53,689 nt of DNA, taken from positions 1-53,689 of the forward strand of contig JALJEE010001667.1 in NCBI GenBank assembly GCA_023231475.1, written 5' to 3'. Below are positions 8,483 through 46,412 of the stretch, piece after piece. This stretch comes from Seison nebaliae. Lineage: Eukaryota. Under the pieces are notes generated by a model. The model ran no database searches. It saw nothing but the letters and a program-made list of their open reading frames with translations, and was not told the DNA's origin. The position numbers and the translations under genes were made by a program. Numbering within the stretch: the stretch's first letter is position 1; every line of letters starts with the position of its first letter.

Positions 8483-11279
8483 ATGGTTAATTCTTCTTTT
8501 TTCATTTTCCTTAACTTTCAAATATAATAAAATAGACAAAGAGATCATTAACACCAAACGACCAAAATAATATATATCAAAAGAAACTTTTCGTTAGAAT
8601 TTGTCTTCTTCTAATTTTTAAAATCTTCGTTTCATTTCGGATACACAGGAAGGATTAGATGAAGGAATTGGGAAGAAAAAGAAAAATTATGGAAATGATT
8701 TGGGTTTTATCCATAGTGAAAATCGAACAGGTCTCGGTACAACAACAACGAAAGATCATTTAGAAAAACAACCATTGACCGAGTGGAAAGAGGAAGATGA
8801 ACCGGTTAATTTTTCACCAATTCATTTTTCTATCAAAATATCAATTATTTGTCATTAGTTACAATTCGACAAACAGATACAATGGTATCGCAGTGAAGAC
8901 ATTGAGGAAGAAAAGTTTTTAGATTTTAAAAAAGAATTAGAAAATGCAAATGGAAAATTGATGGAAGAGAATTTGTTTAGAGAAGGAAAAGTTTATTCTT
9001 AATTCTTCATTTCACATTTCAAATTGATATTAAGCCAATTACAAGATTGGAAGAAGAGCCCATCAATTGCGATAAGAATTTGTTAATCGATTTACTCAAA
9101 TATAAAGTTTGGATTTTGAGAGTTTTCCGAAACATAAATAATTCTCCAGACGATGTTAGATCCGATTGATAAGAAAAAATGTTTCGAAGCAAGACGTCGA
9201 ACGAATGTCTATGAAGATTTGGGAAAGAGTATTTTTATGAACAGAGCAGCATTGAAGATGTTCGAATTGGATTTGAAATGTTCCCATAATTTAACTCATT
9301 CAAATTTGGAAGAAAATGAAAATAAATTGAAACCATTCTATTTCGCTGACTTTTGTGCGGGGCCTGGTGGATTCTCCGAGTACGTTCTTCATCGTCGTTC
9401 TAATTCCAATTCTAACCACAATTGGTTGACGAAGGGTTTCGGATTTACGCTGAAGTTTCCGTCGTATAATGATTTCCGATTGGAAAAGTTCAGAGCTGCT
9501 AGTACCGAATCATTCGAATGTTTTTATGGTTTATTTACCGTTTATAATTTTCGCTTTTCACTTTATTCTTTCATAAATTAATAGGAGAAGACAATAGTGG
9601 AAATATATTTTTGGAGAAGAATCGAGAATCATTTATTAAATTCGTCGAAAGATATTCAGAGAAGAATTACTGTCAATTATGTATGGCCGACGGAGGATTT
9701 GATGTCTCCGGCTTTGAGAATATTCAGGAAATTATGTCGAAGGAATTGTACACATGCGAAATGTATTTAGCGTTGTCGTTGTTGGCTGATGGTTTCCATT
9801 TTTTTATATGATTTTATGATTTTTTTCATATAATATCATTTTTGTTTCAGAGGGAAATTTCGTTTGCAAATTTTTCGATGTCGTTACAAAATATTCGAAT
9901 TCTTTAATTTTTCTTATGTCACTTTGTTTCGAATCGATCTGTTTATTCAAACCGATAACTAGTCGTCCTGCTAATACGGAAAGATTCTTCATTGGTAGAA
10001 AATATAAAAGAAATTCGAAATTGACACAGAATATCAAAATATATTTGGGAGATGTCTGCAACAAAATTGAACGCGAATATTGTTCGATACGTTTCAAAGA
10101 TGATTTATGTGAAAAGAAGGACATGTCTCACATTCGAGTGATAAACGAATTAATTAAATTTGAATGTTTCCCATCCGCTTTCAACGATTACATGAGAAAA
10201 CATAATGATGAAAGTAATAAATTCACGATTTTGAGTTTAAACAAATTTTTGTTTGGAATAAAAGATACGAATTTTATCGATAAACGCAAATATGAAATGA
10301 GAGATATGGCTATGAAGAAATGGAATATGATTTTAGATAATTCTGAGATTGCCAAAATTCAGAAGAATATTGGAGAAAATCTTACGAATCAAATGAATCT
10401 AGTCAAACTCACAACAATTCCAATATTTAGAGAAATTGAAATATTTTTCGAAAAATTATTGAAGACCAATTGCAAATTGTTCCAAAATAGGAAACCTGAA
10501 AATTTCAATAAGAATGATTTCTTTTATTATCCAGTTTACGATGGAGATTATCGTTTATTGATTAAGTTGGGAGATCAAAAAATTATGGAAAAGACGTTGA
10601 ATAAAAAGTCATGTTGGAGGGAGTTTGTGAATGATTATAACAAAATTGAACTACCCAGGAACAGTTTAATTCTGACAAAAAAAACTCTCATCACTGTGAC
10701 ACATAAATTAAAGAAACGTTCTGGTGTTCAGCAGCCGAATGTTCGTTGTCGACGAGTTTATTTCATCCTTGATATTTTCGTCCTTGGAGGAATTAATTTT
10801 TATGAAATTTACAATCAATTCGAAAGGTTTTGTTTAATTTATTTTGTTTCTAATTATGTCTTCAAAACTTTAGATCAAAAGCACAAAAAATGTTATTGAA
10901 TTGTTTGAATAAACCATCGAAATTTCGTAAAAAACGTATCCCAGACAACTTTGAAACAATTGGAATACTACCTGAATTTTCAAAATTTAATCATAAAAAT
11001 ATCACATCGAAAGAAATCGATCCCAGAAATATTCCTATGTTAGCGAATTATTCAGATATGGAAGATTGTTCAGATATTACATGTGAGAAGAAAGTGACAG
11101 AAATTCGTGCAATGCCAAAAGGTTTTTTTGAGAATTTGTTTCACAAATTTATTTCCTTCTAATCCTCATTAGATTCAGATGTTATCTCTTCATCAAGCGA
11201 AAGAACAGATTTCGATATAAAGACTAAGATGGAATACGTCTATTCAAATTCATTAATTTTACCTCTGGAGGAAAAGTAA
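8483..11279 (+). CDS. CMTR1: Cap-specific mRNA (nucleoside-2'-O)-methyltransferase 1, 10 exons
   Basis: RrmJ/FtsJ motifs FMNRAALKM, YFADFCAGPGGFSEY, MADGGF, GNFVCK, KPITSRPANTERF; degenerate N-terminal G-patch (..ENRTGLG). Nine GTT..AG introns restore one frame; the first exon codes only ATG. Confidence 0.92.
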
Positions 11280-11559
11280 AATAGTCTTCATATCATTTCG
11301 GTTCCGTAAATTAGAATCGATTTAAATGAAAGATAAATTTTTGTTTTGGTTCTTTAGTTATCATTTCTCTTATGTTTTGAAGAGTCGTTTCATTCTTAAT
11401 TGTTTTTCGTGAAACGAAATAAAATATTTGTTTTATCATTTTACGATCAATTAAACGAGTAACTTCTTGTTAGATATAGCAAGTTTTTCTAGAATTTTCA
11501 GTCTAATCTTTTTTATTTTTGGAATGATTATTCCAAATTAATGCAGACACATTGATGAA

Positions 11560-11731
11560 TTCTTATCATATATACAACATACATTACCATGTCATGATCT
11601 ACTCGAAGTTAGGAATCTGTTCCCGCCATAGGATTTATGATTTCAATTTTGACAGTAGTGAATGTGCTATAGTCGAAAAGTCGTTCTCGACATTTGGACT
11701 CGATTCTTATATGTTGTATATATGATAAGGA
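11560..11731. mobile_element. MITE-like element with ~22-bp terminal inverted repeats
   Basis: ttcttatcatatatacaacata (11560) versus tatgttgtatatatgataagga (ends 11731), one mismatch. Imperfect symmetry extends ~14 bp further out. Confidence 0.55.
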
Positions 11732-11832
11732 GCCATAAACGTGTTATGAGCTGAAGAAAATTTGACTATCATTAATTTCTGTTTAGTCAGGAATGTTTAC
11801 TATTAAAATAAAGAAAATACTAAATGAGAAAT

Positions 11833-11904
11833 GCGTCAGTGGTGTAAAGGTTAGCATGGTTGCCTTCCAAGCAATTGATCCGGGTTCGATTCCCGGCTGA
11901 CGCA
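11833..11904 (+). tRNA. tRNA-Gly (anticodon TCC)
   Basis: Acceptor stem GCGTCAG/CTGACGC, anticodon arm GTTGC-CTTCCAA-GCAAT, T-arm CCGGG-TTCGATT-CCCGG, downstream T-run Pol III terminator. Confidence 0.97.
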
Positions 11905-12184
11905 AATAATTTTTTTTCAACTAGACAAATGAATAGTCCGTTATGAAGTCCGTTAAACACTACTAAGAAGAACATTTGCTTGATATTAGTACCAATTATA
12001 TTTGTCGTAACGTAACCGATAAAGTGAAAGGAGCGACGAGTCGAAGGCGACTATAAAGTTCCGTTATATATCAGGTATGGTGGCATTAGTGATTACTAGA
12101 CAGTCAATATCTTTCCGAAAATATCTATCAAGAGTCATTCGTTTAAGAAAACTATATTTGGAGTTAAGTAATAAATTGAAATAA

Positions 12185-12630
12185 ATGGGAAGTTCGATTA
12201 AAACGGTTTGTATCTTTTTCGTCATTTTTCTCACAAATGTGGAAGGAGAATTAGGTTAACATCTACTTTAAATTTGAGATTAATCTGATAAAATTTGATG
12301 TTGTTAGATAACTCCTTATCCAATTTATTTCAAGCACTCGCTGCTAATCAGTTAATGGAATCATATGACAAACGTGCTGTGAAATCGAATCGATTGAATT
12401 CGAAGATAAAATTTTATGAGCAACAAGCAGATTTGCTTACGAAATTGTTAAATGGTGAAGATGTATCTGATGATGAGAAGTTATTGTTAAGTTTCTTCAT
12501 TTTTCTTTTATTTCCATTCTTTTCAAGAGGAATGATGCATGAAGATAATATAAACGCCGAATTCTTGGAAATGGTAAAAAATAAAATTGAGAAACTAAAA
12601 TCGAGAAAAGGACGTCGTCGTCGTCATTGA
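12185..12630 (+). CDS. Secreted prepropeptide-like protein
   Basis: Signal-peptide exon MGSSIKTVCIFFVIFLTNVEG; introns 12255-12307 and probably 12486-12527; internal KR site; C-terminal G-RRRR. Confidence 0.65.
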
Positions 12631-13091
12631 AATCGACACAGAGCTGGTCAATAAAGAAGATGATGATTAATTGTCATAAAGAACAATTATCTTTAAGTAA
12701 TTTTCATATATGGAAGAGAAGCAAAACGACTATAATAATAAGAATAATAAATTTCTGATTGAATGTTTCTCTTAAATTGAACGAGTAAAAAGAAAATCTA
12801 TTATTGACTTATTGTTCCTTTACATCATTCTATATTGTCCATGATCAGTTATATAAGAACTGATGTAATCGTTAACAAAAGTGTATCAACTTGAAATATC
12901 ATTAGAATTGAATATCGACCGATTTCATTCCACTCAACATATACGACACTTACAAGAACTAATAAATTATTAATTTCCTTCCCACTCTTGTTGTTAGTGT
13001 TCGAGGGAATATAAAAAGAGTATAATGGAATTGTCTTTTACATAGAACGTTTATTCCTTCTTTATTTTCATCTAGTTAAGAATCATCAATA

Positions 13092-13860
13092 ATGAAACAT
13101 TTTTTCTTGTCTCTCTTAGTAGCCACATTGGTTATTTCAGCATTAGCTGAATATTCAGGTTCTAATTTCCATTACACTTCATTCACTTAATTAATTAATT
13201 TAAATAACTGAATTAGATGAGGATCTTCTTGACATTTTATCAGCGGAAGATGCTGATTCATTCTTAGAGACTTTCGAGAAACGTTTTTGGAAGAAAAAGA
13301 AGCCAACATCTGCTCCAACCATTTCACCAAGAAAACTGAAAAAAGCAGAAAAACAACGACAGGAGAAAGAGAGACGTCTGAAATTGAATAAGGCGAAAGC
13401 TTTGAAATTTTATGAGGATACATGTGAAACGTCGAAGAAAATTCCTCAGAGATCATGTCGACCAATACAGGAATGTTTTGCTGATTCGGGATCAAGAAGG
13501 AACTCGATTAAACCACGACCATCCGATCCTTCCGATAATTACTTGAGACCATCTTCTTTCAGAAATCCATCATCTGGAAGTCTTCGACGATCTTCTGGAA
13601 GTTTCCATCGTTCATCGATCGATAGTTCACCATCATCAAGACGAAGTATCCGAGTCAAGCCCATTCCAATACGTCGCCCAAGTGAGTCAAGTCGAAGAGA
13701 TTCGATTCTTTCTCGACGATTGACTGATGATTATCGTCGAAATCGTGATAGTTACAGTTCGCGAAGAGGTTCGTCTAACGAGGAATCTGGATCAACAATT
13801 TATCGTACTTTCCGGGCATCGAAAGATAATCCGAAAACTTACCGAACATACAGTTTCTAA
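13092..13860 (+). CDS. Secreted precursor: signal, acidic pro-region, KR, very basic Arg/Ser-rich mature part
   Basis: MKHFFLSLLVATLVISALA; intron 13159-13216 joins in frame to DEDLLDILSAEDADSFLETFEKR-FWKKKK.. and on into ORF 13384-13860. Confidence 0.75.
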
Positions 13861-14232: not shown

Positions 14233-15150
14233 ATGAATTGTACATTCGGAATTTATTTCATTTATTTCATCGTTACAATTACGATCGGTTACATGAATTC
14301 CTTATCTTTCATTTCCTTCAATTAAATTTAGTTCTTCCATTAAAGTTCATTTCATTCTCCGTTCCAAAATGGCTGTGGTGGACGATCGAACCCAATGTAC
14401 ATCCATCAAAATCGATGTCATTCATCGAGGAAGGACTTTGGGCGAAATGTGTTTCACTTCATGAACAATCTGGTACAGAAGTCACGGATGATCATTTGTT
14501 GGAATTATTTAATTTTACGATGAACATTCATTTTTTTACCTCTTCAGTTTTAAGACGTGTACTCATTGGACGGGAGAATTTCTTTATTCCAGTTGGATGG
14601 AATTCGATGTCGACGTTCCACAAAATGCACCATCCGAAATTTATCGACATGTCGTAATTGATGATTATCTTTATGTAATTCAAGTTAGGAAAGAATTGTT
14701 TTTTCGAAAATTCAAATTCCATTCTTTCAGGCATTAATTACAACCGGAATGATTTCTGATATTTTATCTGCATTTTTGCTAATTATCATTTTTCACAAAA
14801 TTCGCACTACTCATGAAACATCATTACCATTAATTAAATGGATGATATTTTTGAACGTCGCTTCCATCATATTGCGAACCATATCGATGGTTCTGGTGGA
14901 AGCTCTTTGGAAGAAGAAGCGTTATGATGCTCTTATGAATTTCGAACCAATGAACAAACCAATTATGATATATGGATGGGCATTCTATTTGGAAATTGCT
15001 GTCATTATACTCACCGTTATATTATCCACAACTGAAGCGATTCATTATAAAGTGAAAGTGAGTGAAATTAAGAGAATCTATCGGAAAAAAATCATCTTAC
15101 AACAAGTCACCGAGAGATTGAAGATGTTAGACAATGAAGATATACCATAA
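14233..15150 (+). CDS. PMP22/claudin-superfamily tetraspan protein (copy 1)
   Basis: TM1 then W..EEGLW..C..C extracellular signature, three further hydrophobic segments including YGWAFYL. Introns 14288-14331, 14498-14547, 14684-14730. Confidence 0.75.
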
Positions 15151-15262
15151 ACTTTTTACGTGATGAAATTGAGAATAAATTAATTTGAAAATTTCGAAAT
15201 TTTCTATTTTTCCTCTTAGAATGTATCATGTTCCCAACTTTTAGAAAGGTCGAATTGAAAAA

Positions 15263-16685
15263 ATGAAACAATTTCCGTCGTCTACAGCGAAAGTTTTAAT
15301 TTCGACGAAAGATGAAAAACTCTTCTATTTATTGGCATGGATTTTCGGCATTGGATTAGGTATTATCATTGTTATTCTCCCATTTTTCATTAGTTCCTTC
15401 AGGTTTTCCGTCACTGGTCGTGTCATTCGCTTCACCAAATTATTTAATTTGGGCTAACGAACCGGAAATCGAACCAACAGATGCGAAAACTTTAATAACG
15501 GAAGGAATCTGGTCTGGATGTTTCGTTGTTCATGATACGTTGTATACACATCGAAAGTCTTTTTAACCATCTCTCAGGAATTTCATGAATTTTCCGTAGT
15601 TATAAAGTATGTCAATTTTGGACTGGTGGTATTTCGTTTAAATCGTGGAAGGTTCAAGATCCGCAATTAAATCCGGCACTTATTATGGAACTAGACACCC
15701 CAACATTAATGAACGAGTTTATAAATACTTGTCAAGTTTCAATCTTCGATTTATTTACAATATTTTGTTAGCTTAATCGAACCAATTTTAATTCTAGGCA
15801 TTCTATTTTTTGGCATTATTTTCCCATTTGGCTTCCATTGTTTGTTTGAGTCTTTTTGAGCAGAAAAGAAAGAAAATATCAAAACTCGCGTTAACCAAAT
15901 TTTTGAATATAACCGGAGGATTGTTGATAACATCGAGCTTCTTACGTCTTCTTACCATACCGATAATTACGGAAGGATGGCTAAAAAAACGACGACAGGC
16001 ACTTGTGAATTTCTCTCAGAATTTTATGCCAATCGTACGTTATGGTTGGGGTTTCTGGTTTGCTATACCTTCAATATTATTCCCGATGGTTGGAGGAATT
16101 GTCTTATTAATATTGACAAGGAAAATTATCGATCGATACAGTCGAAATAAATTCACGGCCAGTATGATGACGATACCTCAAGATTTACGTCCACATGAAC
16201 GATTTCCGTTAATAAGACGAACACCGTCCCATTCTTCGATCAAGAAACCAATTCTGTATGCAACTGGCGGGAAAAATGGTGGAATTTATTATGATTATAA
16301 TACCGAACAAAAGATTAGGAAAGGTGAGGAAAAGAGAGAGATGATAAAACGTCAACCGAATAAATTCATTAATAATAATCTTCAGACACATCATATGGGA
16401 ACTGGGAAAATGGACCAATATGAAGACATAAAAACTCAACATCCAGTCAACGTTCCTACTCATGTTCCACCACATAATTATAATTATTATCTTCCTGCTA
16501 AAAACAATTTGCCGAATTTGGAAAATTTAAAGGAACAAGAAACTCATCATTTTGGAAGTTAAAATTTTCCCGTTTTTTGAAAAAATTTCATAAAATATTT
16601 TAATAATTTTTTAGATCGAGAACTTCATGGAAGTCGCCAAATTATTAATATCGATGCGGATAATGCTTTAGAATCTGCCGTCTAA
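15263..16685 (+). CDS. PMP22/claudin-superfamily tetraspan protein (copy 2, long cytoplasmic tail ending ESAV)
   Basis: TEGIWSGC..YKVC and YGWGFWF motifs; four introns restore the frame; tandem paralog of copy 1. Confidence 0.75.
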
Positions 16686-16749
16686 TTTTTTCTTTTATTT
16701 TGTAATACAAAAAATCCGATTTAAATTAATTTTAAAGAATAATTCCCGA

Positions 16750-18034
16750 TTAAGTGAAAGTTTTAAGAACATTCTCTGATGATTTCTCTACTACCGGAAT
16801 AACGATTTCATGAATAAATGGTCGTTCAACATTTTTGTTCGCCAACATCACTTTTAAGAGTTTAATAATATCATTTGATAAATGTCCATAGTTCGTTGGA
16901 ATGATTATGTCATTGTTCTCAATAACATCGAACAATTTTTGAATTTGACTAATTTGAATTTCGAGTAATTGAATTTCTTTACATTGGAAAAGAAACGGAT
17001 GATGAATAAATGCCAATTGGTAAAGAATTACACCTAATTGCCATACATCGCTCAATCTCCCATCATATATGTCTGTTCCTCGAACATTCTCTGGTGGAGA
17101 CGCCAACGGTGTACATTGTTGACGATAAATATGATGAGAATTTGAATTTTTCTCCCTCATTTTAATATGATGACGAATTGATCGTCTAATTTTAATTTGT
17201 TGCTCATATGTACCATCATCGTCATCGAATTTAGTCTCAACAATTGTCGCGTTTGATAATGGAGTAGCTATCTCAAAATCGATTAGTTTTAGTATTCCTG
17301 CTTCCGTTATGATGATATTTTCTAATTTCAAATCGTTATGAATTATATTCGCCGTTAGATGAAGATATCGAACTGCAGCGAACAAATGTTCCATACAATG
17401 AATTAATTCAGTTTGATTTAGAGAGAATCTATCATTATCCGAATAACGTTCGATCAATTTCTTCTGGTCAATTAATAGTGGGAGATGATTCACGAAGAAA
17501 TTGTCTAAATCGCAAATTCCTCGTTCGAGTAATATATACAATTTCTTCTGATGTCCGTCATAAGAAAAATGGATAAATTTCACAATGTTCTCATGTGCCA
17601 GTTGAGATAAGATCGATACTTCTCGACCAAATCGCATTTGTTCGAATCGATTCAAATCTGCACCATAATTATCATCAGTGATACCATCAAATGATTTAGT
17701 TTCTTGAAATTTCTTATTGAAATTAATACGATTTCGAACCGTTATTTTAGTTAAATTCGTTTTGTTTTTTAACATTTTGATTATAATCCGTTTTTTTGTA
17801 GGACGGAGTACGCTTTCGAACACATCGGTATTATTCGTTCCGTGATAGATATTCTCACCTAACTGAATATGACTAAGAGATATGACATTCTTCGGATTCA
17901 TGGTTGACGTTTCGAGACAAGATCTGTTGACGAAAAGTTTGTTCGCTACTTTATTGTCTGAACGGAAATTACGAAGTTGTTTGTTCAGTTGTCGCGAGGA
18001 CGTTACGGAACGAACGTTTATCAGTTGGATTCAT
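16750..18034 (-). CDS. Divergent Ser/Thr protein kinase
   Basis: IIIK, REVSIL..LAHENIV, HNDLKLEN, LIDFE, SPPE, DVWQLGV. A 19-nt first exon (ATG 18034) joins in frame via GTT..CAG intron 18015-17958. Confidence 0.85.
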
Positions 18035-18089
18035 ATTGTTTGAAAAATTGAAATTCATTCATTTGTATAAAATTGAGTCGTAACGGACG

Positions 18090-18535
18090 TAGTGATGTTG
18101 ATACGAATTGCGAAGAGAAATTAATTTCTTAGTTCCCCTTTTAATAAATGAAAAATTCCAGACATTTCCCTTTCGCGAGTTATACATACTCCCACTTCGT
18201 GAAGGGAAACGAAGTGAAGGAAAGAATAGGAGAAAAAAAGGAACGGCGAAAGAACATTTTTTTGAAAGTCCTTTTCCTACTTTAACGGACAGAATAGTAC
18301 TGCGACAATATATTCGTTGAAAAATTATGATATTCTGTCCGTTAAAGTAGGAAAAGGACTTTCAAAAAAATGTTCTTTCGCCGTTCCTTTTTTTCTCCTA
18401 TTCTTTCCTTCACTTTCACTTTCCACGAAGTGGGATTATGTATAGCTCGCGAAAGGGAAATGTCTGGAAATTTTCATTTATTAAAAGGGGAACCAAGAAA
18501 TTAATTTCCATTCGCACTTCGTATCAACATCACTA
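18090..18535. mobile_element. hAT-type palindromic MITE (446 bp) with 8-bp target-site duplication
   Basis: Termini TAGTGATG...CATCACTA; ~205-bp inverted arms (18090-18296 and 18331-18535); direct repeat AACGGACG at 18082-18089 and 18536-18543. Confidence 0.92.
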
Positions 18536-21800: not shown

Positions 21801-23428
21801 TAATATTCTTCACTATCCATTTCAACTGGAACATATTTACCATTTATTAATCGATAAATTTTCGGAATTTGTTTAATATAATCTTCGTTATGTTCCAGAG
21901 ATAAATCACCGTCATTGGGATGTTCGGTCACTAAAGTTTTCTGATATTCTTCAGGAATATGAATTCCATGCTTCCTCAACAATTCAGGATCGATCGGTTT
22001 CCCAGTAAGAATATCGATAGGAATTTGTTTAACACTTCGAATCGTCGTAATTTTCGTCACTTTAGTCACTTCTTCTTGTTCTTGTTGACGACGAACAATT
22101 TTTGTGCCATCTGGTGCCACTTCTTCGGTGACTGTCTCGTGAACGGTGACATGACTTTTTCCTTCATTCGGACTAGTACTGGACGTTGTGTTCTTATTAT
22201 TCTTATTATCATTGGAGTCGTTGGAACGAATGTTGAGTTTAGAGAATGATTGAGGTAAATCGGGATCGATCGACATTTGTTGATTGGATAACGGTCCATC
22301 AGTATCGAATTCGTATGTGTATGAATAACGTTCTCTCGTTGGTAATTGTTGAGTCATTGTATGAAACTTTTCATTTGAATCGGAATGTTTCATTTCATCA
22401 ACATCATCACTACTACTTCCCGTATTAATTTGATCATCAGAGACACGTGGCTGTATACAGGAAAGATCTTTCTGTTTATATTGTTCACCCACTAAATGAT
22501 GATAATGACCTTCGTCATTCTTATGTTTATCGTTCGTCCTCTTCCTACTCCCACAAACATACTCATAATTGATGGGAGAGGAGTCTCTCGAATAATATTG
22601 TTGTTCCATCTGATGATATTGTTCATATTGTTTCTGCTGTTCATGTGGATGTTGTTGTTGAAAGTTATCGTTGTCGGCATAATGATGAACTTCGTCTGAA
22701 TCACTTTGATTCATTCCATTCGTATAAGGGAACGTATCGTTATGTTGCATCGAATGATAGTGTTGAGAGTTGGGATCATACGGATGATGATTCGGATCGA
22801 TTTGACGATGGTGATGTTCCATATGTCGTTGAGAGGAATGGGAACAATCGATTTCATCTGAACTATTCGCATTATAAAATCGACGATTATCAGTTATCGT
22901 TTGTTGAGGAATTTGCTGACGATGCGAATGGTGATGATGATGGTGATGGGATGGATAATGTGGATAATCGACGACGTTGTCTGTTGAGTATCGTCTAACA
23001 TGATCCATCTCTTCCTGATTATTACAGTTATTCTCTCCCTCGTAAGTATCATTCGACTGATTATTATGATTATTATAATCATCATCTTCTTCTTCTTCTT
23101 CTTCCTCTTCATCATCATCATCGTCATCTTCTGTGGTTGTATTTCGATTTTCATTATAAGCACGATGATGATGATGTTGATGATGCGGAGGATAACCAGG
23201 ATAATTCTGTTCTTGTGAATGATGGTGATGGTGATGATGTTGATGATATTGTCGTTCTGCATGATAATTTCGTTTAGTAGACGACATGTTAGAATAAGGT
23301 GAAGAATTCACTTCGTCCACATGATACGAATGCATTTCTTGTTGAGACGTTAAATTATCTGGAGAATAATGTTGATGATGATAATGTTCCTCTTGTAATT
23401 GATATCGACCTTCATTATCATCATTATC

Positions 23429-23471
<43 letters not shown>

Positions 23472-27400: not shown

Positions 27401-30400
27401 TTTTAAAAATCGGTCGTTTTCCGTCGTTGCCATTGGTGATGTGATCGTCCAAAATGAAGCACATCAACACATTAACTCCCAACGAACGATATGGAAAAGT
27501 AAAGTTATTTGTATATGAACAAATAAAATGTCTGATAAATTGCGACTTCAAGAATTGAACGAGATTAGGAATCCGTTTTCTCCAAACTAGAAAACTACAA
27601 CATATGTTCCCTTTTCAGAAATAGATTCCTCATGATTTATTGGGAACAGCCTTTATTTGTTTAGTTTAGCGAAATGGATAAATATTTGTAGAAGGAATGC
27701 ATCCAACTCAATTACCAATAAATTCGCAATGACGATCTAAGATTTGCATCATGAAAACAATATACTCCCAATAAAATGAGAAGAGCACATGAAATGACTG
27801 GAAATGGGATGATTAGGAAAGAAGACACTGTTGAAATGTTCAAGTTGAAGAATGGTATCATTGGACGGAGAAGGATGTAGTTGAATCGAAGGAAACATGA
27901 GATATATTGCCTATTGCGTCTTATGGACAATTCATCTGTCTCATTTACAAGTCAATGTGAGTTGAAGGCATCATGCGATCATTCGTCCTTCGAATAACAA
28001 TTTCCAAACAAGAATCGAAATGTTCGATTCGAAAAAATGTTCATTCGTTACAGTTGTGGAATGCGTCGAACATCAAAGTAATGATTCTTCTAAAGAATAA
28101 TGACGGAAGAAACTTAATTTTATCTCATTTATTCACTGAGACAACGAGCTTCTATGGGAGAAATATCATAATAAATTGACACTGATTCATAATTCATGCA
28201 TTATATTCACCTTTCTTTCTTAATACATTTGATAATTTCACTGAATCGAATTCTCTTCATTCTTACAATAGAACGTTTCGATAGGAATAATGAAACAATT
28301 AATTCTACAATTAATTATTATTAATTAATATGGAAATAAATTATTAGTCATTTTGATGAATCATTGACGAAGAAAAATGTTCATTAATTTCTCTTAAAGA
28401 ATATTAGAGATTTTTTTAGAATTTTAATAAATTTGGAAAATTCGATAATATAGGAAAGTATCGATATATCGATATATATATCAAGTTCTCACTTCAAAAT
28501 TTAATAACTTCAGAATACATATCAAGGGAATCATAAACTGGTCAGATTGTTAAAAATGATCATTGGACGGAATAGTAAAATTAAATTTTATCTGTTTATA
28601 AGTTTTACTGTGCATAAGAAGTAAGGGGAAAATCATCAAATAATTCTGATGATATAAAGATGGAATTTTAGACGATATTTTAAAGTTTAGTTCGATGGGA
28701 AAAGAATGATTTAGAGAAAGAGTAAATCTCTGTACATAAAAACTAATAATTTTATATAATCGTTGATCTTTCCATAAAGAGGTGTTTTCCAGAAGAAAAT
28801 AATTGCCGTAAAAACATTCAAGTTGTGAGTGTCAGAGAAATGATGATGTCAAAGTTATTTAAAATTGTGACATTTTGAGTGAATTTCGTCTCTTCCAAAC
28901 AATTCTGGAAAGATGTCGAATGACGTTAACGAACTTGCTGATATTTGAACGTCGATTGAGGATGAGAGAAGTCATAAATTCGAGAAGAAAAATAATGAAA
29001 ATTTCAAATACTTTTCTTCTCGTCTCTTACGTAGTCGTTATATGAATCAAATTGAACACTTGTACGATGATGATGTGATTCCATAGTCATTTTTGGAATA
29101 TGTCACTTGTGAAAAGTAGTCAATTTCTATGAATATTTCGACGGTTTTCTATATTCCCAATGCCTCTTCTTTTCGTTTGAAAGGCAAATTGAGTTGAGAG
29201 ACCAATTAACCCAAAATGAAATTTCATTTCTCAGAATTCAGTTGAAATATTATTTATCGTACTGTCACTTATTGAGAGATTCATTAATTGTATTGCCGGC
29301 GGATGATATTCACTTCCAAGCACAAGTAGAGGATCATCTTCATTGTTCCGCTTTCCATCTGTTTTCTTCATTACTTTCTCTTTTGTTATATCTCGAAACT
29401 TATACGTTTTCACAATCTTCATCGACTTCTTTCCAGAAATATCTCCTTTTCCATTCTTTGTCTCTGATGACAGTTGTGGAAATGATAGTAAATTCTTTTG
29501 AATCGTTTGAGAGTCAAATGCTAAAATGATTTCAGACGAAGTGTCCTTGAAGTTATTTTATAGAAAAAGGATCGGAAAATGAGAATATGAACCGTCAAAT
29601 TTTGGCATTTCTTTGGTAGATTATTCATTGTCATGAAATTTTCGAAGTATTATACTTAATTTACTTTTGAAATGAGAAGAATATGAATATTTGATGGAAA
29701 TAACACCTCTAACTTCAACCGAACACATTTCATTAGTTAAATATGGAACACCATTCTTCCAATCGAAAGAAATTTACGAAGAGGCTGCCAGTGGTTGTTG
29801 TTGAAGGAAAAATATTGACATCTATTCTCATATACGATGATTGACTCAGTTTTGAATTAGTCATAAAGAAACCTTCAATGGCAATTGTAGAGAATATAGA
29901 AACGTTACCAACACGGAGTTGGTGGATGATGATAAGGAGTTGAAGGAATAATCAAAATAGTATGAGAAAACTCAATCAAGTCAAGTGATATTAGGTGACA
30001 TAAATTATCTTGACATAATCATATTTTATTGATCAGAAAAATTAATATTTTTGCCCGAATGGATTTTTTAACAATTTGCTTCACTCGCTAAAGTGGCGAA
30101 TGAGGAAGAGGTGAATGGATCAAGTAAAATGAGTAATTGAACTTATTGATGCTTTTCCGACAAATAATATTTCCATAACAACATCTAAAAAGAGATTTCT
30201 TTCAAGGTCAAATTACACTAAATTATTCGAAGAGAAGTGAAAGAATTTGATGTTCTAAAATCAGATATTCTTCAAAATGAGAACTGAAAGAAACTTAAAT
30301 TTTATAAAATTGAACTAAATGAATTTAGAAATATTGTGGGAATATAAAAGACGAATTTAAATTAATTGTTAAATATACTTCATAACATAATTCATAATAC

Positions 30401-30647: not shown

Positions 30648-31173
30648 ATGGTCCACAAGAAACGATCGGGTAGTCATTCGGCGGACACGTTGCCCACCAT
30701 GTCCCTCTCATCCAGTTTCACTCACTACGAATTACGTAGAAGGGAAAAAAGTTTCATTTTGGACGGGGTTGCAGTCAGTAATATGCATCGGAAGAAATCG
30801 CCAATTATGATACTTCCAGTGAAAGGAACTGATCAGAAAGTTCGGAAATATAACATTCATAAAGTTTAATATTTCCCCATATTGGAATCATATTCATTCA
30901 ATGAATATTTATTCCAACAAATTTTAGTTGCCATTAATCAATCCACCTAAAAAGTCTTTATTCAATGACGGATATTTACAGAGACGTAATCGACAAGGAG
31001 CCGGTTATTCGGTGTCGGAAGTGATGGGACATGAATTTATGGGAGCACCAAAAAAGGCAATTGACGGTTTCAATGGTGAATTTGGTTATCGTAGAAACAA
31101 TCCAATTTTACGAAAAAATCCTTCCGATTTCGGAGAAATTACTTATTCGCCATTGTTATTCAAATTTTATTAA
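30648..31173 (+). CDS. SPMAP1: C17orf98/SPMAP1-like (DUF4542) cilia/sperm microtubule-associated protein
   Basis: Family motifs EKSFILDGVAVS, YLQRRN..GAGYS, IDGFNGEFGYRRN.P.LR..PSDFGE. One intron ending 30927 (donor 30840 or 30864, both GTT). Confidence 0.85.
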
Positions 31174-31220
31174 ATTTGAAATTTTAACTTATTAATAGAT
31201 ATAAATCCGATAAACAATTG

Positions 31221-34200
31221 ATGTATACGGAAGGCCAAGCACGAAAAAGTTTTTTTTTAATTTTAATAATATGATCGTTTAATTTTTTAAATTATATGAT
31301 ATAGATTCATATCGAATTCGAGTATTTGTTGGAGACGAAGATGAAATGTCAGAGAATAATGAATTATTTCTGAGAATTTATGACGAATATTCGAAAAGGA
31401 AAGAATTCTCCTTAAATAGACTAATGAAAGAAGATGATGATATGTCTCAATTATTCGAACGAGATACTGTCGCCGATTTCGATTATCGAACACGACATAG
31501 ATTAAGACATGTTTTTATTTATTTTAAATCAAAAACAACTTCCAACAACTTGAAATTTTTCCTTGACAAATAGTTAAAAAAGATTCGATTACGATTGAAT
31601 TGTGATGATACGATGGCTGCACTTTACGTCAATCTGGTAGAAATTCAAAAAGATAAAAAAATTTACCGGTTAGTAATTTGGCTCGTTAGATTTGTTGGTT
31701 TCATTTTTTTTTGAAATTTCAGGTTCCCGATAGAAAGATGGTTGAATAAGGAGGATGGATTCGAAACATTTGCCACAACAAAATCTAGTGGAGGAGAAGA
31801 GGCACCCAAAGAGATCGTTGATTATGATATCGAAATAAAAACACAAGATAAATTCTTAAGCGGAACTGACGGTAAAGTGACAGTACAGTTATACAATAAC
31901 AAAACTTCCACATTGCGAATGCCATTGACTAAGAGTCTAAACCACAAGAATCCATTCGAAAAAGGACAAATTGATCGATTTATTGTAAGTGGACATCGAA
32001 TTTCCAATATCTCTAAAATAGTTGTGGAATTGTCAGATAGTCAAGGCAAAGGAGGAGTTTGGAATTTCGAATCTGCACTTATTCTCGTGCCGAAATATGC
32101 GGAGAAATATCAATTTATGTCACCGAAAAAAATGGATCCGAAATCAACGAAAGATAAGAAAGATATCGTCCATGAAATCCACAATCCTCGAATTGATCGT
32201 TAATTTCATTTGTATGAAACATTTATACAAATTCCTTCCAAATTAGATGCAAAGAAGAAAATAGTCTATCAAGTTTTCATAAAAACTGGTGATGCCATTG
32301 GTAGCGGTACTGATAACAACGCTAAGTTGGAGATAGGTGGACGACATACGAATGTGAAGGCGAGAATGATGTTGAATGAAAATCGAACAAGAACGAATAC
32401 ATTTGAGAATGATAATCTTGACGAATTCTATGTAGTTGGGGAGAATGTTGATGAAGTTTCCACATTTAAAAATAAAACAAGAAAATTTGTAATTCGTTAT
32501 ATAGCCAACATCTGTGAAATTGACGTCGAGTGGTGGGGGAATCGGTGCAAAATGGTTTGTGGAATATGTAGAAATTAAAATACCGAAAATAGAAAAAATA
32601 TACAAGTTCATTTTGAAATTATTTTCTTTTTAAAATAACTTTAATATGGAATGATAGATTTGAAATAAATGATTGGTTACGTGAAACTTCGGCAGGAACA
32701 AATAAATACGAAGCATTCGCCTTATCAGAAGCAGAGAAGAAACGAGTTCAAAAAGAGAAAGAAAGTTCGGAAATTTTGAATTTTTTTCCGAAAATTTTTA
32801 AAATTTTTTTAGAGAATTTTGTTACATATAAAATTCGTGTTTTTACTGGAGATGTTAATGGTGCTGGAACGAATAGTAAAGTGAATATGAGAATACGAGG
32901 AAATATGACATCAACTGATCGTATCGATTTGACACAGGACAATTGTGATGATGGTGAAGATACGGATTTATTTGAAAGAAATGTAACAAATACATTTACA
33001 GTGAAACAAAAAGCTGTCGGTCAAGTTAGCAATTTTTATCGATTTTTTTTTTATCTATATTTTTTGGGTAGATTGCTGAAATAACAATTGGTCATGATAA
33101 CAAAGGATCATTCAGTGCTTGGTACTTGGATTCGGTGGTGGTGGAATGTTTGGAAACGAAAGAAGTCAAACGATTCATCGCTGAGCGGTGGTTAGATAAA
33201 TCGAAAGGTGATCAGAGAACGGCAATAAAATTAGAAGCCGCAAATCTCGGAAGTTTAAATTGTTTTGAAAAGATTTTATTCTATTTTTGGTGTAAACGTT
33301 AAATAGAACAAATGAGTTATGAAGTAATAGTTACGACGATGGACGAAAGAAATGCTGGAACTGATGGTGATATATATGTGATATTAATCGGAGATAAAAG
33401 TCGTTCTGAAGAAATTTCATTAAATGAATCGTCATGTATTAATAAGAAAAAATCGGCTCTATTCGAAAAAGGAAAAATTGACACATTCCAAATATTTTCA
33501 AAGAAAATCGGAGAAGTTTTTCTTTTTTCAAAATTTTCTTGAAATGATTTTCGATTTTTAGATTAAAAATGTGACATTGGGATTGAAAGCGAAAGGTATA
33601 GCAGCCGCTTGGGCATTCTCTTCCATGAAAATAAAAGACTTACGTAATGGGAAGGAATATATGTTCAATGAAGTGAATACTTGGTTGAATAAGAAGAATC
33701 ATCAAATCGAGTTAGAACCGACAACGGAAGATGAGAATGCGATGCAGTATCATGTTGAAGTTCTCACAGGCGATGAGTTAGGATCAGGAACTGATGCTGA
33801 TGTATTTTTGACATTGGTGGGTGGTAAAAGCGAAAAGAAAGAGTTGTTGCTATCGAAGGTCAATTTGAATTTGACGCAGGAAATTCATGACAATTTATTT
33901 GAGAAAAATCAGACCGATTATTTTATGTATTCGATAAAAGACCTTGGAAATGTTACTGACTCTTTTTATTTTTTATTTGTCCAAAAACTTCTTCTTTTAA
34001 TTAAGGTTAAAAGTGCTAAATTGAAATTTGGAGAAGATGGATCGAAATGGTATGTGAAACATGTTCTAGTAAGAAATGAGAAGACAAAAATAGAGAAATT
34101 GTTACCGAATATTTTTAAGAAATAATTTGAATTTGAATTTAATTTAATAGATTCGAATTTGATCAATGGTTGGATGAGAAAGCTATCGAATGTTCAGCTA

Positions 34201-37200
34201 CTCCGACGGATTGTGAGGAAACTGAATATAAAGTGATAGTTGCCACAGGCGATGAATCAGGTGCGGGAACAGATAGTGAAGTTTATATTCGGTTATGTGG
34301 AAACGAAGGAATATCGAAGAAAATCGTATTGAAATCTGATAAATCTGGATTATTTGAACGCAATTGTACCGACGAATTCACTATTAAAACATTGAAATTA
34401 TCAGATATTAAGAAGATTATTGTGGGTCATAATGGAAGTGGAATTGGAGCCAAATGGTTGTTCCATTACATCAAACTGAGTAGAAGTGATTGGTCGACTG
34501 ATAAATTGTTTGGAATAAACTCTCTTTCACTTATTTACTTTTCAATTAACTTTTTTAGATTTAAGGAACTTCAATGGATTGAGAAGAAAGATGGTTTGGC
34601 CGAAGTTGAAGTTAAAGAAACACAAAGAAGTTAAATTTCTAATTTAATATTTATAGCTCAATTTTTATTTCATCTTTTATAGCTATAGCTAAAATGGCAA
34701 CATATGATGTGAAAGTAAAGACTGGTGATGATACCGGTGCAGGTACTGATAGTAAAGTCTACATCATCCTTCATGGTTTGAAAGAGAATAGTGAGCGATT
34801 ATTCCTGTCAAAAGACAATTTGAAAAATAAGACAAAATTATTTGAGAATGATGAACTTAATCAATTTACGATAAGTGCTCCAGAATTTAAATCGGTTAAT
34901 CTATGAAATTCCGATAATTTTCATTCGATGTTCATTCAGGTTAAAGCAATATCGATGGGTCATGATGGAAAAGGTTTTGGTGCGTCATGGCAATTGGAGT
35001 ATGTCGAGTTGAAACAAGAGAAATGGAAAGAATATTCCAGGTAAAAATAATTTTTTTCGTATTCAAATATTTTCCTTTTTTTAAATTGTTCAAATCAGAT
35101 ATGAATTTAACGAATGGATTAAAGAGAAAGATGGTAAATGTGAAATGAGAGTGAATAAAATGGAAAAGAAATCAAATTTGGGGAAATATACAGTGACAGT
35201 TATAACGAGTGAAAAAACAGGTAGCGGAACAGATAGCAATGTAAAAGTGAAATTGATAAGTGGAAAGAAGATGAGTGACTTCATCGAACTTTCAAAAGAA
35301 TATACAATTGAACCGAAAAATAAAAATATTTTGGAATCAGGAAATAAAGATATTTTCGTGGTTGAATCAGAACAATTCTCAAATGTTATTTAATTTTACT
35401 TCAAATTATGTATAATATCTCCAAATGTTTCAGTTGACGGAATTGATTGTAACACATGATGGAAAAGGATTCGGTTCTGATTGGGATTTGGAAACGATAC
35501 AGATTGAAGGTAAATTTATGAAGAATAAAAATCTGTTAATTTTTTTGGACATTTTTTTCTAATTTTAATTTTCAAAAAATTAGATTCCGATTTAATCGAT
35601 GTATCGATGGAAAGAAAGAGGAGAAAGCGGAAGTAGAAATAATTGAAAATAAGAAAACAACCAAAGAAACGATAGTAGTAAAAACAGGAGATGTAACTGG
35701 TGCGGGAACAGACAGTGAAGTGTATGTTAAATTGATTGGAGACAAAGATACAACTGATGAAATTATGTTGACGAAAGAGAATGTCATTCAGAGTAAAGAA
35801 ATGAAAAATATAAATTTATTCGAAAATGATAAAATAGATTCATTCTCCATCGATGTTATTGAAATTGGGAAAGTTAATATTTTTTAAATTTAAATCTATA
35901 TTTCTCACGAATAATTTTTCTCAGCTTAAGGAATTGATTGTTGGATATAAGAAGAAAGGATTCGGTGCTAAATGGTATGTAGATTATGTTGAATATAAGA
36001 AAGACAAGTTTGTACTTTTGATTGGTTTTCGATGATGATGATTTGAATCTCTTGGATTGAAGATTTAAATTTGAGAAGTGGATAGAGGAGAAAAAAGGGA
36101 AATGTGAAGAAATTGGTGTATTAGAACAGAAAAGTTTCGTCCAATAAAATATTGAACTAAATTTTAAGTATTAATAGTGGGAGATTATTTGTACAAAGTA
36201 CAAGTGAAAACTGGAAACGTAACAGGTGCGGGAACTGATTCGAACGTGAAACTTCTGGTTTCGGGAAACAAAAAGAAAAATATCCCATTTGTTCTTGATA
36301 AGGATACGGTTCAGAGTAAAAATAAGAACTTATTCGAGAATGATCAGTTGGATGAATTTCATATATATTCGGATGAATTGGGAGATGTTCATATTTTTAT
36401 TATGATCTAATTGGAACTTTTTAAATAGATAAAAGGAATAGAAATCGTTCAAGAAAAGAAAGGTTTGGGTGCGAAATGGAATGTAAATTATATTACCATA
36501 ATCGACGGTAAGAAGAAGAATGAATATAAGTTGGAGTTATTGTGTTCATCTCTACATTTCTCTACATCAATTCAGATTTGAAATAGAAGATTGGATAACT
36601 GAAAAATTTCAGAAGGATTATGTGAAACGTTAATAAATTAAATTTTCTTTCTGAATTATTTTTTAAAATATTTTGACAGCAATCGAAGGAATCGTTTATG
36701 AATTGGATATCATGACAGGTAATGTTATGGGTGCAGGAACTGATAGTGGTGTCTGTGTAACATTATTTAATGGATCGAAGAAAAGTAGTACGATTCAACT
36801 GGTGAAGAAAGTGGCAATTACAACGAATGATAATTTATTTGAAAAGAATATGATTGATACATTCAAATTCACCGCAGAGGAAATTGGAGAAGTTCATTTA
36901 ATTTATAATAATAAGATAATAAGAAATTTATATTAAAATTCATGAAATGAAGATAAGTGACATCAGTTTGAAAATTGATGGGAAAGGTATGGGAAGTAAA
37001 TGGCATGTAGCTTATTGTAAACTGAGATGGAAGACACAAGAAAATACATTTTTGTTCGATTGTTGGATAGAAGACGAGAAGAAAATTTCGAAAACTTTAG
37101 ACGATTGTTTCATTTAATTTATAATATTTCTATTATATTTCCAATTCACTCTTCAATTAATAGCGACGAAAGGTATTGATCCTTATGTTGTGACTATTGT

Positions 37201-38032
37201 TACGGGAAATGAGAATGGTGCAGGAACAGATTCCAATGTCTATATTATTATTGGAAACAATTCGAAGAAGTTGTATAGTGAGAAAATTCAATTGAATAAG
37301 AGTTGTCAAATTTCGAAATATAAGAATTTATTTGAACAAAATCAAATTGACAAATTCAAAATATTTGCCAAATCTGTCTCACCAGTTCGTTGCTCATTCG
37401 CTTTTCCATAAATTCTAATAAATAAAATATTCTTCCAGATTACCACCATCAAAATAGGAACTGATGGTAAAGGATTTGGTGCTAATTGGTTCGTGACGAA
37501 TGTGGATATCGATCATAAAGGAACTATGACAAGGTAAATTTATTTTCTTCTTATTTTGACATATCTTAATTTCTATTAACAGTTTCTATTTTAATGATTG
37601 GATCGAAGAGACGAATGGTAAAATTGAAACGGAATTTTACAACTCCTCAACAAAGAAATATGATTTGGAACTAAAATTAAAAAATTACAATTTAGATGAT
37701 GGATTACCGACCGCCGTCATTGTAACAGAGAAGAAATTGATCGAAACTGGTAAATTAGTGAAAAAGAACAACGAAATATTTACAAAATTGTTAACTTTGG
37801 ACGATATCAGTTTCCAACATTCGAAAATCGGAGAAGCATTATCAGTTAAAGTAACAAATGAAGAGCATAATTCAAATTGGTCTGTTGAGAATGTTCATCT
37901 GACCGATCTCATCACTAACAATAATTATAAGTTTATTTTATTTATTAATCTTTAATTTTTCATTTTCTTTCTTTTTCCAGAAGTGACAAATCGGCAGCAT
38001 CAATAAACGGAACTGCCACAGTGAAATTTTAG
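31221..38032 (+). CDS. LOXHD1-like protein with 14 tandem PLAT/LH2 domains, 29 introns
   Basis: Repeats of Y-x-V-x-V-x-TGD..GAGTD..LFE..D-x-F..G..W..V..F..W; all fragmentary ORFs join in one frame. First and last repeats are divergent. Confidence 0.92.
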
Positions 38033-38223
38033 ATATTTTTCTTAAAGAATCTTTGAATGAATTTGGAAAACTTTTAAAATAAAATTGTCTTTTCTCAAGT
38101 TATCGAAAAGCTGATGGAATTTACTATTGATATAAATAAGAAGAATGATGAAAATTTTCTAAAAAAAAAGGTAAAAAGATGTCGTTTCAGAAAAGCAAAA
38201 AATTTGATTGAAATTAATTCGAA

Positions 38224-40931
38224 TCAATTATCGGTTGGAATTGTCGTCATTTTTCCGTTAGATATGGTTGATTTAAATTGTTCCGGTATCGGATGTTCCA
38301 CCTTGATAAAATTAAAAAATTATAAAAAAAAATATTTATAAAAAATTTCAAACAAAATCATTTTCGTCCGTTTTACTCGGAAATAAAACGGTAATTCCTG
38401 ATATCATCGATGTTACCAATTCAGTCTGTTCATGCGATTTCGATAAGTAGAATGAACAATCTTGTGTCTTGTCGAAACAGATAGTTGGAGCGTTAACCAA
38501 CACCTAATTTGAATGAGATTAAATAGAAGAAATTAAATTTTTCAATCGAACTTGTCCTTTACATCGTTGACAATTGATGAATTCGACGGAAGAAACGACT
38601 GAATCAAAACAGAAAGCCGTCTTCTTACACGAATCAATTACGATGTTACTGACTTTCCCGTTAATTTTGACGAAAGAATTGGAACATTTATAAATGTAAA
38701 CATTCTGTCTCATATCATCAACATCGATTATCACTTCATTATTATTTTCAACATATTCGACAATCCACTTCTTACCCTGAAGTTCGATACATGGTGCATT
38801 CGACTTCTTTTCCATTTTCGTTATAGAATGATTTTCTCTTATATTATTCTCTTCTTTATTCAGTTGTGCAGTTTGTCTGACTGATGAATTTTTATGAGTT
38901 ATTTCCTTTTTCTCAACTTTCTTCAACGTTTTTGTTATATCAAGACCTTGATTCAACTCCGAACAGAGAGCGTTCATTGCTGACTTCTGTTTATCATCTT
39001 CTTTTCCCTCTTCCAAATGAGTAAGGATATCGTCTGGTAAACATGGCGGTGGTGGTGGAGGTGCTGTAACTTTTGATGAATCATTTATATTATTATCATC
39101 CATCCACACAAGGCCATTTGTGTAATTTAATAATAAATATTGATTAATTTTTTTAAAAATCTTTTGGAATTTCGGAATAAATTCTCTTTAAAAAAAAATG
39201 AAATTAATTAAAGAAATTTGGGAATTGGAGAGAATTAATAAACTTGAAGATGGAGGAACGTAATGCACGATTAGCATAGAACTGTTGACATTCATGTACA
39301 TCGACTTGGAAGTCTTTTGGTTTGTTTTGCTATTGAGGAAATTCATGAAGAAAAAAAAAGAGAGAAGATACGAACAAAAATCCAATGGAAGATTTCCGCT
39401 GCTTTCGCCACCATCGTCAAATGATTGATATATTGAGAACCGTGATATGTTTGAGGGACATTCTAAAATTGGATTATAAATGAAATAAATTAAACGACGT
39501 GTAATAAAATGGAAATATAACAGATAATTCTGTTAACTTCTCCGAATATTTCTTTATCAATTTTTTCCTCTCATCAACATTCGGTTCCGATCTCGTTTTC
39601 GTTAATTGTACATAATTATTCGCTTCTTGTGCTACATCGACAAATAATGAAATGACTGTTTTCAATTCATCATTTTCATTCGTATAATTTTTCAAATATT
39701 CACTCAATTCATTCGTCAATGTCTCATATGCGTCTTGTGGTTTATCCGAATTAATTCCTTCTTTTTCAACCACATTATTTTCATTATGTTGCTAATAAGA
39801 GAATTGTAGAAGAGTGAAAAGAAAAAAGTGAAAACTTTGATCGTTGCCCATTTCAATCCAGTAGGATAATTCTCTTTGACATTCCCATATAATTCTTTCA
39901 TATATTCCAGAAATTTGGAGACGAATATTTTATGTGATCCATTCGAACTTTTTAAAATTAATTTAAATAAATTTCAAATTTCAAATATTCTAACTCGTCT
40001 TTGTATTCTTTAAGAATTCGATTTCCATAAAATTGAACTGAATCAATAACATTATTGATAGCATCATATGGCTTCACAGTCGTCTACGTTAAATAAAAGT
40101 TCAAAGTTTCTTTATAGATTTTTATATATAAATAAATTTAGATCTAACAGATACCCAACCATACATGGCAACACCTTCACTAATCAGTGAGAGATGATTC
40201 AAATATTTACTCTTTCTTTGATCATCTCTGTAATTTTGAGTTAGGACGATGGCGTCACTTAATGGTCCTAATAATAATTGAAAATCTTTCTAATATAAAT
40301 AGAATGAATAATTTCTAATTATTAAGCAGAATAATAAAGAACATTTGTTTTCCTTTCTAATCGACGACAAGACTCCAACAATTTATCATGCTCATTTGCT
40401 GACAAACACAATTTTTGGATCTTCAAAAAAAAATAATTTCAAAAAAATAATTACAATAAAAACTATTTTTTCTACTGATTTGTCGATCTGTTTGGCAGCG
40501 ATGAGAACTTGTTTCAATTTCGGATTGTCCATTTTAATTTGATTATTATTTGATTGTTTTTCTGATTTATCTTCGTCTGATTTATCGTAAGAAACAAAAG
40601 GGAATTTAATGAAATAAACCGAATATCATTTGGGCCAAGGCGGAACTTCCACCAATTTTTAATTTTGGTTTTTCTATTGATGATTTGTTGGAATTATTGT
40701 TCTAATGAAATTAAGAGATAGAAAGAATTGGAAAGAATATTTTTAATAAAAACTTTTTCGAAACGATTCTTCAAATCGTTAAAGTTAATTCTTTCTTTAT
40801 TATTCGTATCTGAATTGATGGAATGGAGAGAAGATAATTGAAGAAGAGTTTGTGATTCGAATAAATATTTTATCAGAAGATAAATAGGGTAATGTGAAGG
40901 GAATTGATGGGAAAGAGAAATAACCTTCCAT
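38224..40931 (-). CDS. CAP: Adenylyl cyclase-associated protein (CAP/Srv2) with two N-terminal helical domains, 13 introns
   Basis: NHLSLISEG..GW, FYGNRILKEYK, YPTGLKW, poly-Pro, WH2 (ELNQGLDITKTLKKV), CARP (KKWIVEY, VYIYKC, VSSVEFINC, EHPIPEQF). The 5' three exons are less certain. Confidence 0.92.

Positions 40932-46381: not shown

Positions 46382-46412
<31 letters not shown>

Follow-up and report, generated by a model that had tools for sequence, protein, structure and literature searches.

Introns of the rotifer Seison nebaliae begin almost uniformly with GTT on a 54-kb contig, possibly reflecting a changed U1 RNA

Our analysis concerns the 5′ splice sites (donors) on one 54-kb contig of Seison nebaliae, a small marine rotifer that lives epizoically and whose genome is compact, with ~46 Mb and 32% GC (PMC8351084). 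All positions given below are those of the window, i.e., the whole stretch of 53,689 nucleotides (nt) that was analysed. Its Akt kinase (46016-47560) gave a 100% match that a public source lists under S. nebaliae, as it does the models of the PLAT gene and of CAP. We placed 70 introns in it, 67 of which begin with GTT and three with GTA, while no donor begins with GTG or GTC. The third intron position (+3) is a T in 96% of the introns as compared to 50% in intron bodies (p about 1e-16), on both strands and in ten or more genes, and we regard it as very probable that this rule is real and selected. The possibility that +3T is no more frequent than intronic T at large, raised in a first-pass annotation of this DNA, does not hold within this contig. 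These are real GT-AG introns, likely removed by an ordinary U2-type spliceosome. As an explanation we favour, tentatively, a U1 small nuclear RNA (snRNA) in which position 6 would be A rather than U, so as to pair with GUU.

The first-pass annotation had reported that 62 of 65 introns between positions 8483 and 40931 start with GTT on both strands. It gave counts without coordinates, and we matched its introns to ours by gene and count. The observation was borne out, in that we find 65 GTT and three GTA donors among 68 introns in the same range, with two further introns outside it. The numbers agree for CMTR1 (9), the secreted pair (3), the claudin-like pair (7), the catenin (2), SPMAP1 (1) and CAP (13); for the PLAT gene 29 introns had been given and we place 30, three introns of another gene had been missed, and for the kinase one had been given and we count none.

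Public gene models, exactly splice-aligned to the window, carry nine introns in CMTR1 (P0124, all GTT), 32 in the PLAT gene (P0121, 30 GTT and two GTA), 14 in CAP (P0274, 13 GTT and one GTG) and five in a doubtful Akt tail (P0001, three GTT, one GTG and one GTA). Since such models may have learned the GTT rule, we relied on three independent checks, namely RNA, homology and a blind intron finder. With respect to their support, the 70 introns fall into three classes: 20 (all GTT) are found in published transcript alignments; 25 without RNA (24 GTT, one GTA) were recovered exactly by a spliced aligner that was given foreign proteins and has no term for +3; and the other 25 (23 GTT, two GTA) were placed by reading frame, public models or hand only and are not independent of the rule.

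The RNA evidence comes from the transcript table of PMC8351084, in which assembled transcripts are aligned to the genome and at least 13 rows fit the window. Among the rows listed there are 20 distinct gaps of 43-115 nt, each of which has a single GT-AG placement over all equivalent slides, and all 20 start with GTT (p about 2e-6 against 50% T). They lie in five unrelated genes (13 in CAP, two in the catenin-like gene, three in the transcript at 28879-29996, and one each in RPB10 and ARMH3), and the five in the last three of these are absent from the earlier list. It had been considered that transcripts might move the donors to nearby GTA or GTG sites, but they did not do so, and unused GTA, GTG or GTC sites do occur near the 20 introns (12 are listed). 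No row for PLAT, SPMAP1, the claudin pair or the first secreted gene was found among the transcript rows listed. In two sequencing runs (X1 and X2), coverage is as even over introns and spacers as it would be for DNA, and X6 and X7 gave nothing on the window.

Foreign CAP, CMTR1 and PLAT proteins yielded 93 introns in 13 spliced alignments, of which 68 coincide exactly with modelled sites and seven share the donor with the models. The remaining 18 (seven GTT, six GTG, four GTC and one GC) are in poorly conserved parts. At the donor at 36134, one homolog picks a GTG 18 nt upstream, whereas the other picks the GTT. Fifty introns have no RNA, and in 22 of them there is no frame-keeping GTA, GTG or GTC donor within about 45 nt. 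The blind finder, which uses frame, length and composition only and again has no +3 term, called 32 introns in the window, 28 of them GTT; in positions 1-8000, five of its seven calls were GTT.

Eight rows were dropped before the count. These are an in-frame GTT intron at 36258-36302 that neither homolog uses, an in-frame GTG intron of the CAP model (39656-39703) through which a published transcript reads, the five introns of the P0001 tail, which overlie the RPB10 gene on the opposite strand, and a GTT candidate in the kinase gene (18015-17958, coordinates by eye). With all eight restored, 72 of 78 donors are GTT. The kinase candidate goes back to an earlier claim, namely that the GTT rule had predicted a hidden first exon of this gene, which we could not uphold: the kinase transcript (16743-17998) is unspliced and runs about 40 nt into the candidate, whose composition is exon-like (GC about 0.45, as against 0.11-0.32 in the other introns).

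Beyond +3, the donor holds little. At +4 we count A 29, T 26, C 12 and G 3, with T below background (p 0.03), and +6 is at background (T in 36/70), whereas G at +5 occurs in 19/70 introns (27%) against 5.7% G in intron bodies (p 9e-9) and in 7/20 of the RNA set. On the exon side, A at -2 is found in 45/70 introns versus an expected 38% (p 1e-5), which holds also against exonic GT sites, while G at -1 (19/70) equals background. The earlier description of donors that have neither a +4A/+5G/+6T consensus nor an exonic AG preference is hence not confirmed as regards +5G and -2A. An exonic AG precedes all three GTA donors but only six of the 67 GTT donors (p 0.0015), and a CAG acceptor follows in 3/3 against 16/67 introns (p 0.018, a test chosen post hoc). 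Among GTT donors, no significant anti-correlation of +5G with -1G or -2A was found (p 0.13 and 0.16, respectively). As many as 36 different donor hexamers are in use, the commonest in 7/70 introns and GTTTGT in one. The introns are G-poor and short, with a median of 51 nt and 68/70 in the range of 42-65 nt, and they all end in YAG or AAG (Y, pyrimidine; TAG 39, CAG 19, AAG 12). Standard branch-point patterns of the YTRAY type (R, purine) were not above shuffles in the introns; TCAY has a density of 18.8 per kb in sense, compared to 7.7 in antisense and 13-15 between genes, and no fixed position.

With respect to the class of these introns, GT-AG ends in all 70 and removal from mRNA in 20/20 transcript gaps agree with the U2 type, while the purine usual at +3 is seen in only 3/70. 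Minor introns of the U12 type have an invariant extended donor with A at +3, and this assignment was rejected because there is no common hexamer.

As regards relatives, a metagenome was scanned with a Rotaria CAP, which gave 26 loci; 24 of them were aligned (L021 and L026 were left out) and 17 carry introns. These loci (L001-L025) are 62-92% identical to a Rotaria CAP, an identity that points to a bdelloid-like taxon. They resemble the window in GC content (about 0.30), and their introns resemble those of Seison in their size of 50-60 nt and in their T-rich AG ends, but with 43% T their donors are GTA in 29/31 cases, in a sample that covers no more than two or three orthologous positions. Between Seison and the bdelloid-like loci, none of the CAP intron positions coincide. 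On about 100 kb of 23 such loci, the blind finder made 44 calls (23 GTA, 14 GTT, five GTG, two GTC), such that the GTT share of 28/32 in the window stands against 14/44 in the relatives (p 1.5e-6). This GTT minority among the relatives' blind calls suggests that GTT was probably an ancestral minority that rose to near fixation on the Seison line. Within the window, the PLAT repeats have introns at three recurrent positions and phases, and the intron positions of both CAP_N copies match as well, in each case without common sequence. Hence, old introns appear to carry the GTT rule, which argues that the reader of the donor must have changed.

How might such a reader work? A U1 with A at position 6 would form a core helix of three Watson-Crick pairs with the donor (G+1, U+2, U+3). 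At a GTA donor, the third pair would be lost and exon-side AG pairing with U1 or with U5 loop 1 would be needed, and GTG and GTC donors, none of which was seen, would be mismatched. Since the donor amounts to only about 6.3 bits in total, the narrow length and the G-poor composition probably add the remaining information, by intron definition. In the human U1 small nuclear ribonucleoprotein (snRNP), +3 faces pseudouridine 6 and is usually A or G, a U at this position makes a U-U mismatch, and U1-C is described as contacting the backbone and no bases (PMC4383343). Because +3U is thus disfavoured by the RNA and the protein lacks base contacts, a change in the RNA would be the simplest route to a required +3U, and we would put U1 as the changed component at somewhat short of an even chance. 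There is a precedent in Entamoeba, whose donors are GUUUGU and whose U1 has changed to ACAAAC (bioRxiv 10.1101/2022.06.08.495308). Likewise, the exonic AG before GTA donors corresponds to the compensation between exonic and intronic donor parts that has been described (5′/3′ compensation; PMC11732430). In an Rfam search of the window, a tRNA was the sole match to reach the gathering score, and no match to a spliceosomal RNA was obtained up to E=1.

A number of points weigh against a changed U1, or against the breadth of its basis. Where donors are atypical (yeasts, Giardia, Trichomonas, Thecamonas, Micromonas), U1 has been reported to be standard in most lineages, and +3U can gain pairing with a standard U6 ACAGA (bioRxiv 10.1101/2022.06.08.495308); in Fritillaria, donors have widened with the 5′ ends of U1 unchanged (PMC13326754). 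Against our donors, the A6 version of U1 averages only 6.3 of 11 matches, compared to 5.4 for the standard one. The AG compensation rests on three GTA donors, none of them supported by RNA, and in all 50 of the 70 introns are without RNA. Four introns are seen in unspliced form as well: an isoform of the catenin and one of ARMH3 each keep an intron, and two short transcript fragments of CMTR1 read through 9529-9584 and 9792-9850. These fragments are probably precursors, because both CMTR1 introns interrupt the frame and are placed by each of the six homologs. Finally, all of this comes from a single contig.

The strongest competitor, which we consider less likely though well worth keeping in mind, leaves U1 standard and sets +3U at the transfer of the donor to U6 and U5, by wobble with U6 G44, an altered ACAGA box or a changed Prp8 pocket, with U1 pairing loosened. 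It has been argued that commitment to a donor is made mainly at the transfer to U6 (PMC11732430), and the standard ACAGA of Entamoeba can pair with positions 2-6 of GUUUGU (bioRxiv 10.1101/2022.06.08.495308); moreover, the leftover +5G and the AG compensation suit U6 and U5 as well as U1. However, a donor led by U6 should gain +4U, +5G and +6U, whereas T at +4 is below background here, +6T is at background and +5G reaches 27%, and with a standard U1, GTA and GTG should remain the preferred donors, but we see them in 3/70 and 0/70 introns. Rather unlikely, in our estimate, is a situation in which the snRNA sequences are standard throughout and U+3 is favoured by a changed protein (U1-C, LUC7, SNRNP27K or Prp8) or modification, such as the loss of pseudouridine 6 or N6-methyladenosine (m6A). 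U1-C helps +3U donors to compete (PMC4383343), Fritillaria changed m6A on U1 and U6 but not their sequence (PMC13326754), and S. nebaliae is reported to lack about 36% of the metazoan BUSCO genes (PMC8351084). Still, a U1-C that does not touch the bases explains tolerance of +3U but not its near-fixation, and loss of METTL16 or SNRNP27K shifts +4 to U, of which there is no sign here.

Three further explanations were considered. That the GTT excess is confined to this contig, or exaggerated because introns were placed at GTT, in a genome that otherwise mixes GTA and GTT like its relatives, would be compatible with a sample of 54 kb, with the 25 introns that rest on frame, models or hand placement, and with the GTT minority already present in the relatives (14/44 blind calls); yet the transcript gaps are GTT without exception in five unrelated genes, both strands and ten or more genes agree, and the blind finder reaches 28/32, so that we hold this for improbable. 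Even less credit can be given to a +3 that is unconstrained in T-rich introns or to a donor read one base out of register: intron bodies are indeed 50% T, but this falls far short of the 96% at +3, and relatives with 43% T use GTA, while a shifted register is contradicted by G at +6 in only 7/67 donors and RAG at +4 to +6 in 0/67. Both are refuted for this contig by these counts. Least probable of all is a recent burst of one introner, i.e., an intron-making transposon, with a GTT end. The uniform start and narrow length of the introns would suit it, as would 13 introns in the Seison CAP against 0-3 in bdelloid-like CAP loci, but the introns share no common sequence (best pairwise local score 27.6 compared to 26.2 in shuffles, maximum 36), 45/70 lack a junction repeat, and positions match between duplicated domains, by which this idea is largely refuted.

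What remains of the earlier proposal of a remodelled donor-recognition system is that recognition in Seison differs from that of the standard animal spliceosome, because +3T lies far above composition, also holds where introns have RNA support, is not shared by relatives with comparable GC and intron size, and is due neither to an introner nor to a shifted register. The word remodelled, however, is a little too strong, since what is left of +5G and -2A, together with the AG that precedes each GTA donor, agrees with an ordinary U2-type machine in which a single position is reversed.

Table 1. Genes and introns in the window, with strand, donors and basis of placement
Feature	Position	Strand	Introns and donors	Basis and remarks
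CMTR1 cap methyltransferase	8483..11279	+	9 introns, 43-59 nt, all GTT..AG	FtsJ domain; exact spliced P0124 match; 5/9 recovered with foreign homologs
Two small secreted-type genes	12185..13860	+	12255-12307, 12480-12527, 13159-13216, all GTT	hand placement, open frames
Claudin-like gene pair	14233..16685	+	7 introns: 6 GTT, 1 GTA	hand placement, open frames; weak Claudin_2 match below curated cut-off
GTA exception 1 (claudin-like pair)	15360..15402	+	exonic AG before donor, CAG acceptor	no frame-keeping GTT alternative; no RNA
Armadillo-repeat (catenin-like) gene introns	19658-19715, 20013-20065	-	both GTT	transcript gaps; joined frame 1584 aa (amino acids); Arm repeats
Spliced transcript missed in the first pass	28879..29996	-	29546-29592, 29664-29713, 29822-29872, all GTT	transcript gaps
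SPMAP1-like gene and LOXHD1-like gene with 13 PLAT domains	30648..38032	+	31 introns: 29 GTT, 2 GTA	P0121; 20 recovered with foreign proteins
GTA exception 2 (PLAT)	35041..35098	+	exonic AG, CAG acceptor	picked by both foreign PLAT proteins
GTA exception 3 (PLAT)	37534..37582	+	exonic AG, CAG acceptor	public model, repeat position; one longer frame-keeping GTT alternative
CAP (cyclase-associated protein)	38225..40931	-	13 introns, all GTT	all 13 are gaps of one published transcript alignment, single GT-AG placement each
ARMH3-like gene, intron near 5′ end	45271..45330	-	GTT	transcript gap in 1/2 isoforms; outside the first-pass range
RPB10 (RNA polymerase subunit), intron	48774..48820	-	GTT	transcript gap; small protein encoded in full by the joined frame; outside the first-pass range

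Some features of these genes deserve mention. The secreted-gene intron at 12480-12527 is in frame, and other donors are possible for it. The transcript at 28879-29996 has a longest joined frame of 123 amino acids, with no Pfam match on the part tested, and may encode a short protein or be non-coding. The CAP protein (38225-40931, minus strand) has two tandem CAP_N domains with matching intron positions, where the Rotaria protein has one, and a higher-depth CAP_N-like copy matches 39581-39689. Low-depth contigs in the sequencing runs X2 and X3 match 35501-35782, 37162-37933 and 38228-40543, are about 80-90% alike with changes mostly at third codon positions, and cross introns 35535-35583 and 37385-37438 with indels; they may represent a second diverged lineage or a paralog. 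Long intron-free coding stretches, namely ~790 amino acids of Akt (45997-48403, plus strand), ~1090 of the ARMH3-like gene (41894-45270, minus) and most of the catenin-like gene (20066-24650, minus), adjoin genes with an intron every 100-200 bases. Probable errors of the public models are the joining of SPMAP1 to the PLAT gene (30648-38032), the GTG intron in CAP (39656-39703) and an Akt tail spliced over RPB10 on the opposite strand (48397-48982).

Between the kinase and the catenin-like gene lies a long inverted repeat (18090-18535) with a 34-nt loop and arms at 18090-18201/18424-18535 (94%) and 18212-18296/18331-18415 (100%). It looks like a foldback element or a miniature inverted-repeat transposable element, and its matches to microRNA hairpins are all sub-threshold. 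A tRNA-Gly(TCC) is located at 11832-11905, and a threonine-rich mucin-like repeat (5340-5790) and a 12-base tandem repeat (7370-7500), all on the plus strand, belong to the genes to the left of the introns described.

Few features of animal splicing are as conserved as the purine at +3 and the parts of U1 and U6 by which it is read, and in human genes a change to +3U damages splicing. What is new here is an intron-rich animal in which one donor position is reversed and the rest of the donor is nearly erased. If a changed snRNA is indeed the cause, which we put forward as a cautious proposal, Seison would be the first known animal with a donor-recoded major spliceosome, in which old introns, in their tens of thousands, have GUU as the whole core signal, the class of ancestral GURAG donors has collapsed and AG//GUA serves as a rare fallback. 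A reversal at +3 in the old introns of an intron-rich animal is a natural test of whether U1 binding or the transfer to U6 and U5 fixes the donor consensus, and also of how the splicing machinery can change in step with its many targets while the introns are retained. On the practical side, the public gene models of this contig probably contain false introns at GTG and GTA sites.

Our search of the openly accessible literature found no description of a donor consensus for Seison, acanthocephalans or bdelloids, nor of GTT donors in an animal. The main text of PMC8351084 uses "splice" a single time, in a note on methods, and lacks "snRNA" altogether; no intron sequence was found in the accessible part of the lamin paper (PMC10125929). 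In the literature searched, near-universal +3U was found only for Entamoeba, which departs from the usual donor at two sites (bioRxiv 10.1101/2022.06.08.495308).

Entamoeba is one of the closest known systems. Like Seison, it has U2-type splicing in which almost every intron carries +3U, and its introns are short and AT-rich and have GT-AG ends (bioRxiv 10.1101/2022.06.08.495308). However, it is an intron-poor protist with a strict motif of 6-7 bases (88-90% GUUUGU), whereas Seison is intron-rich and fixes only +3; a strict +4U/+5G/+6U is not found in the window, given T at +4 in 26, G at +5 in 19 and T at +6 in 36 of 70 introns. Measured against the two usual donor classes, the three GTA donors of Seison fit AG//GU and a trace of +5G persists, but most of its donors fit neither, with -1G at background, +5G at 27% and U in place of the +3 purine. 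In yeasts, +4U donors have been linked to the loss of METTL16 and SNRNP27K (PMC11732430). Like Seison, these yeasts show a lineage-wide shift of one intronic donor position, but in Seison the position is +3 and +4U is slightly depleted, and the yeast lineages are intron-poor. Fritillaria borealis, in turn, is an animal with a genome-wide departure from standard donors (PMC13326754), Seison being known from one contig. In Fritillaria, 95% of introns escape GT-AG and recognition has widened (PMC13326754), whereas Seison has kept GT-AG in all 70 introns and narrowed the third base.

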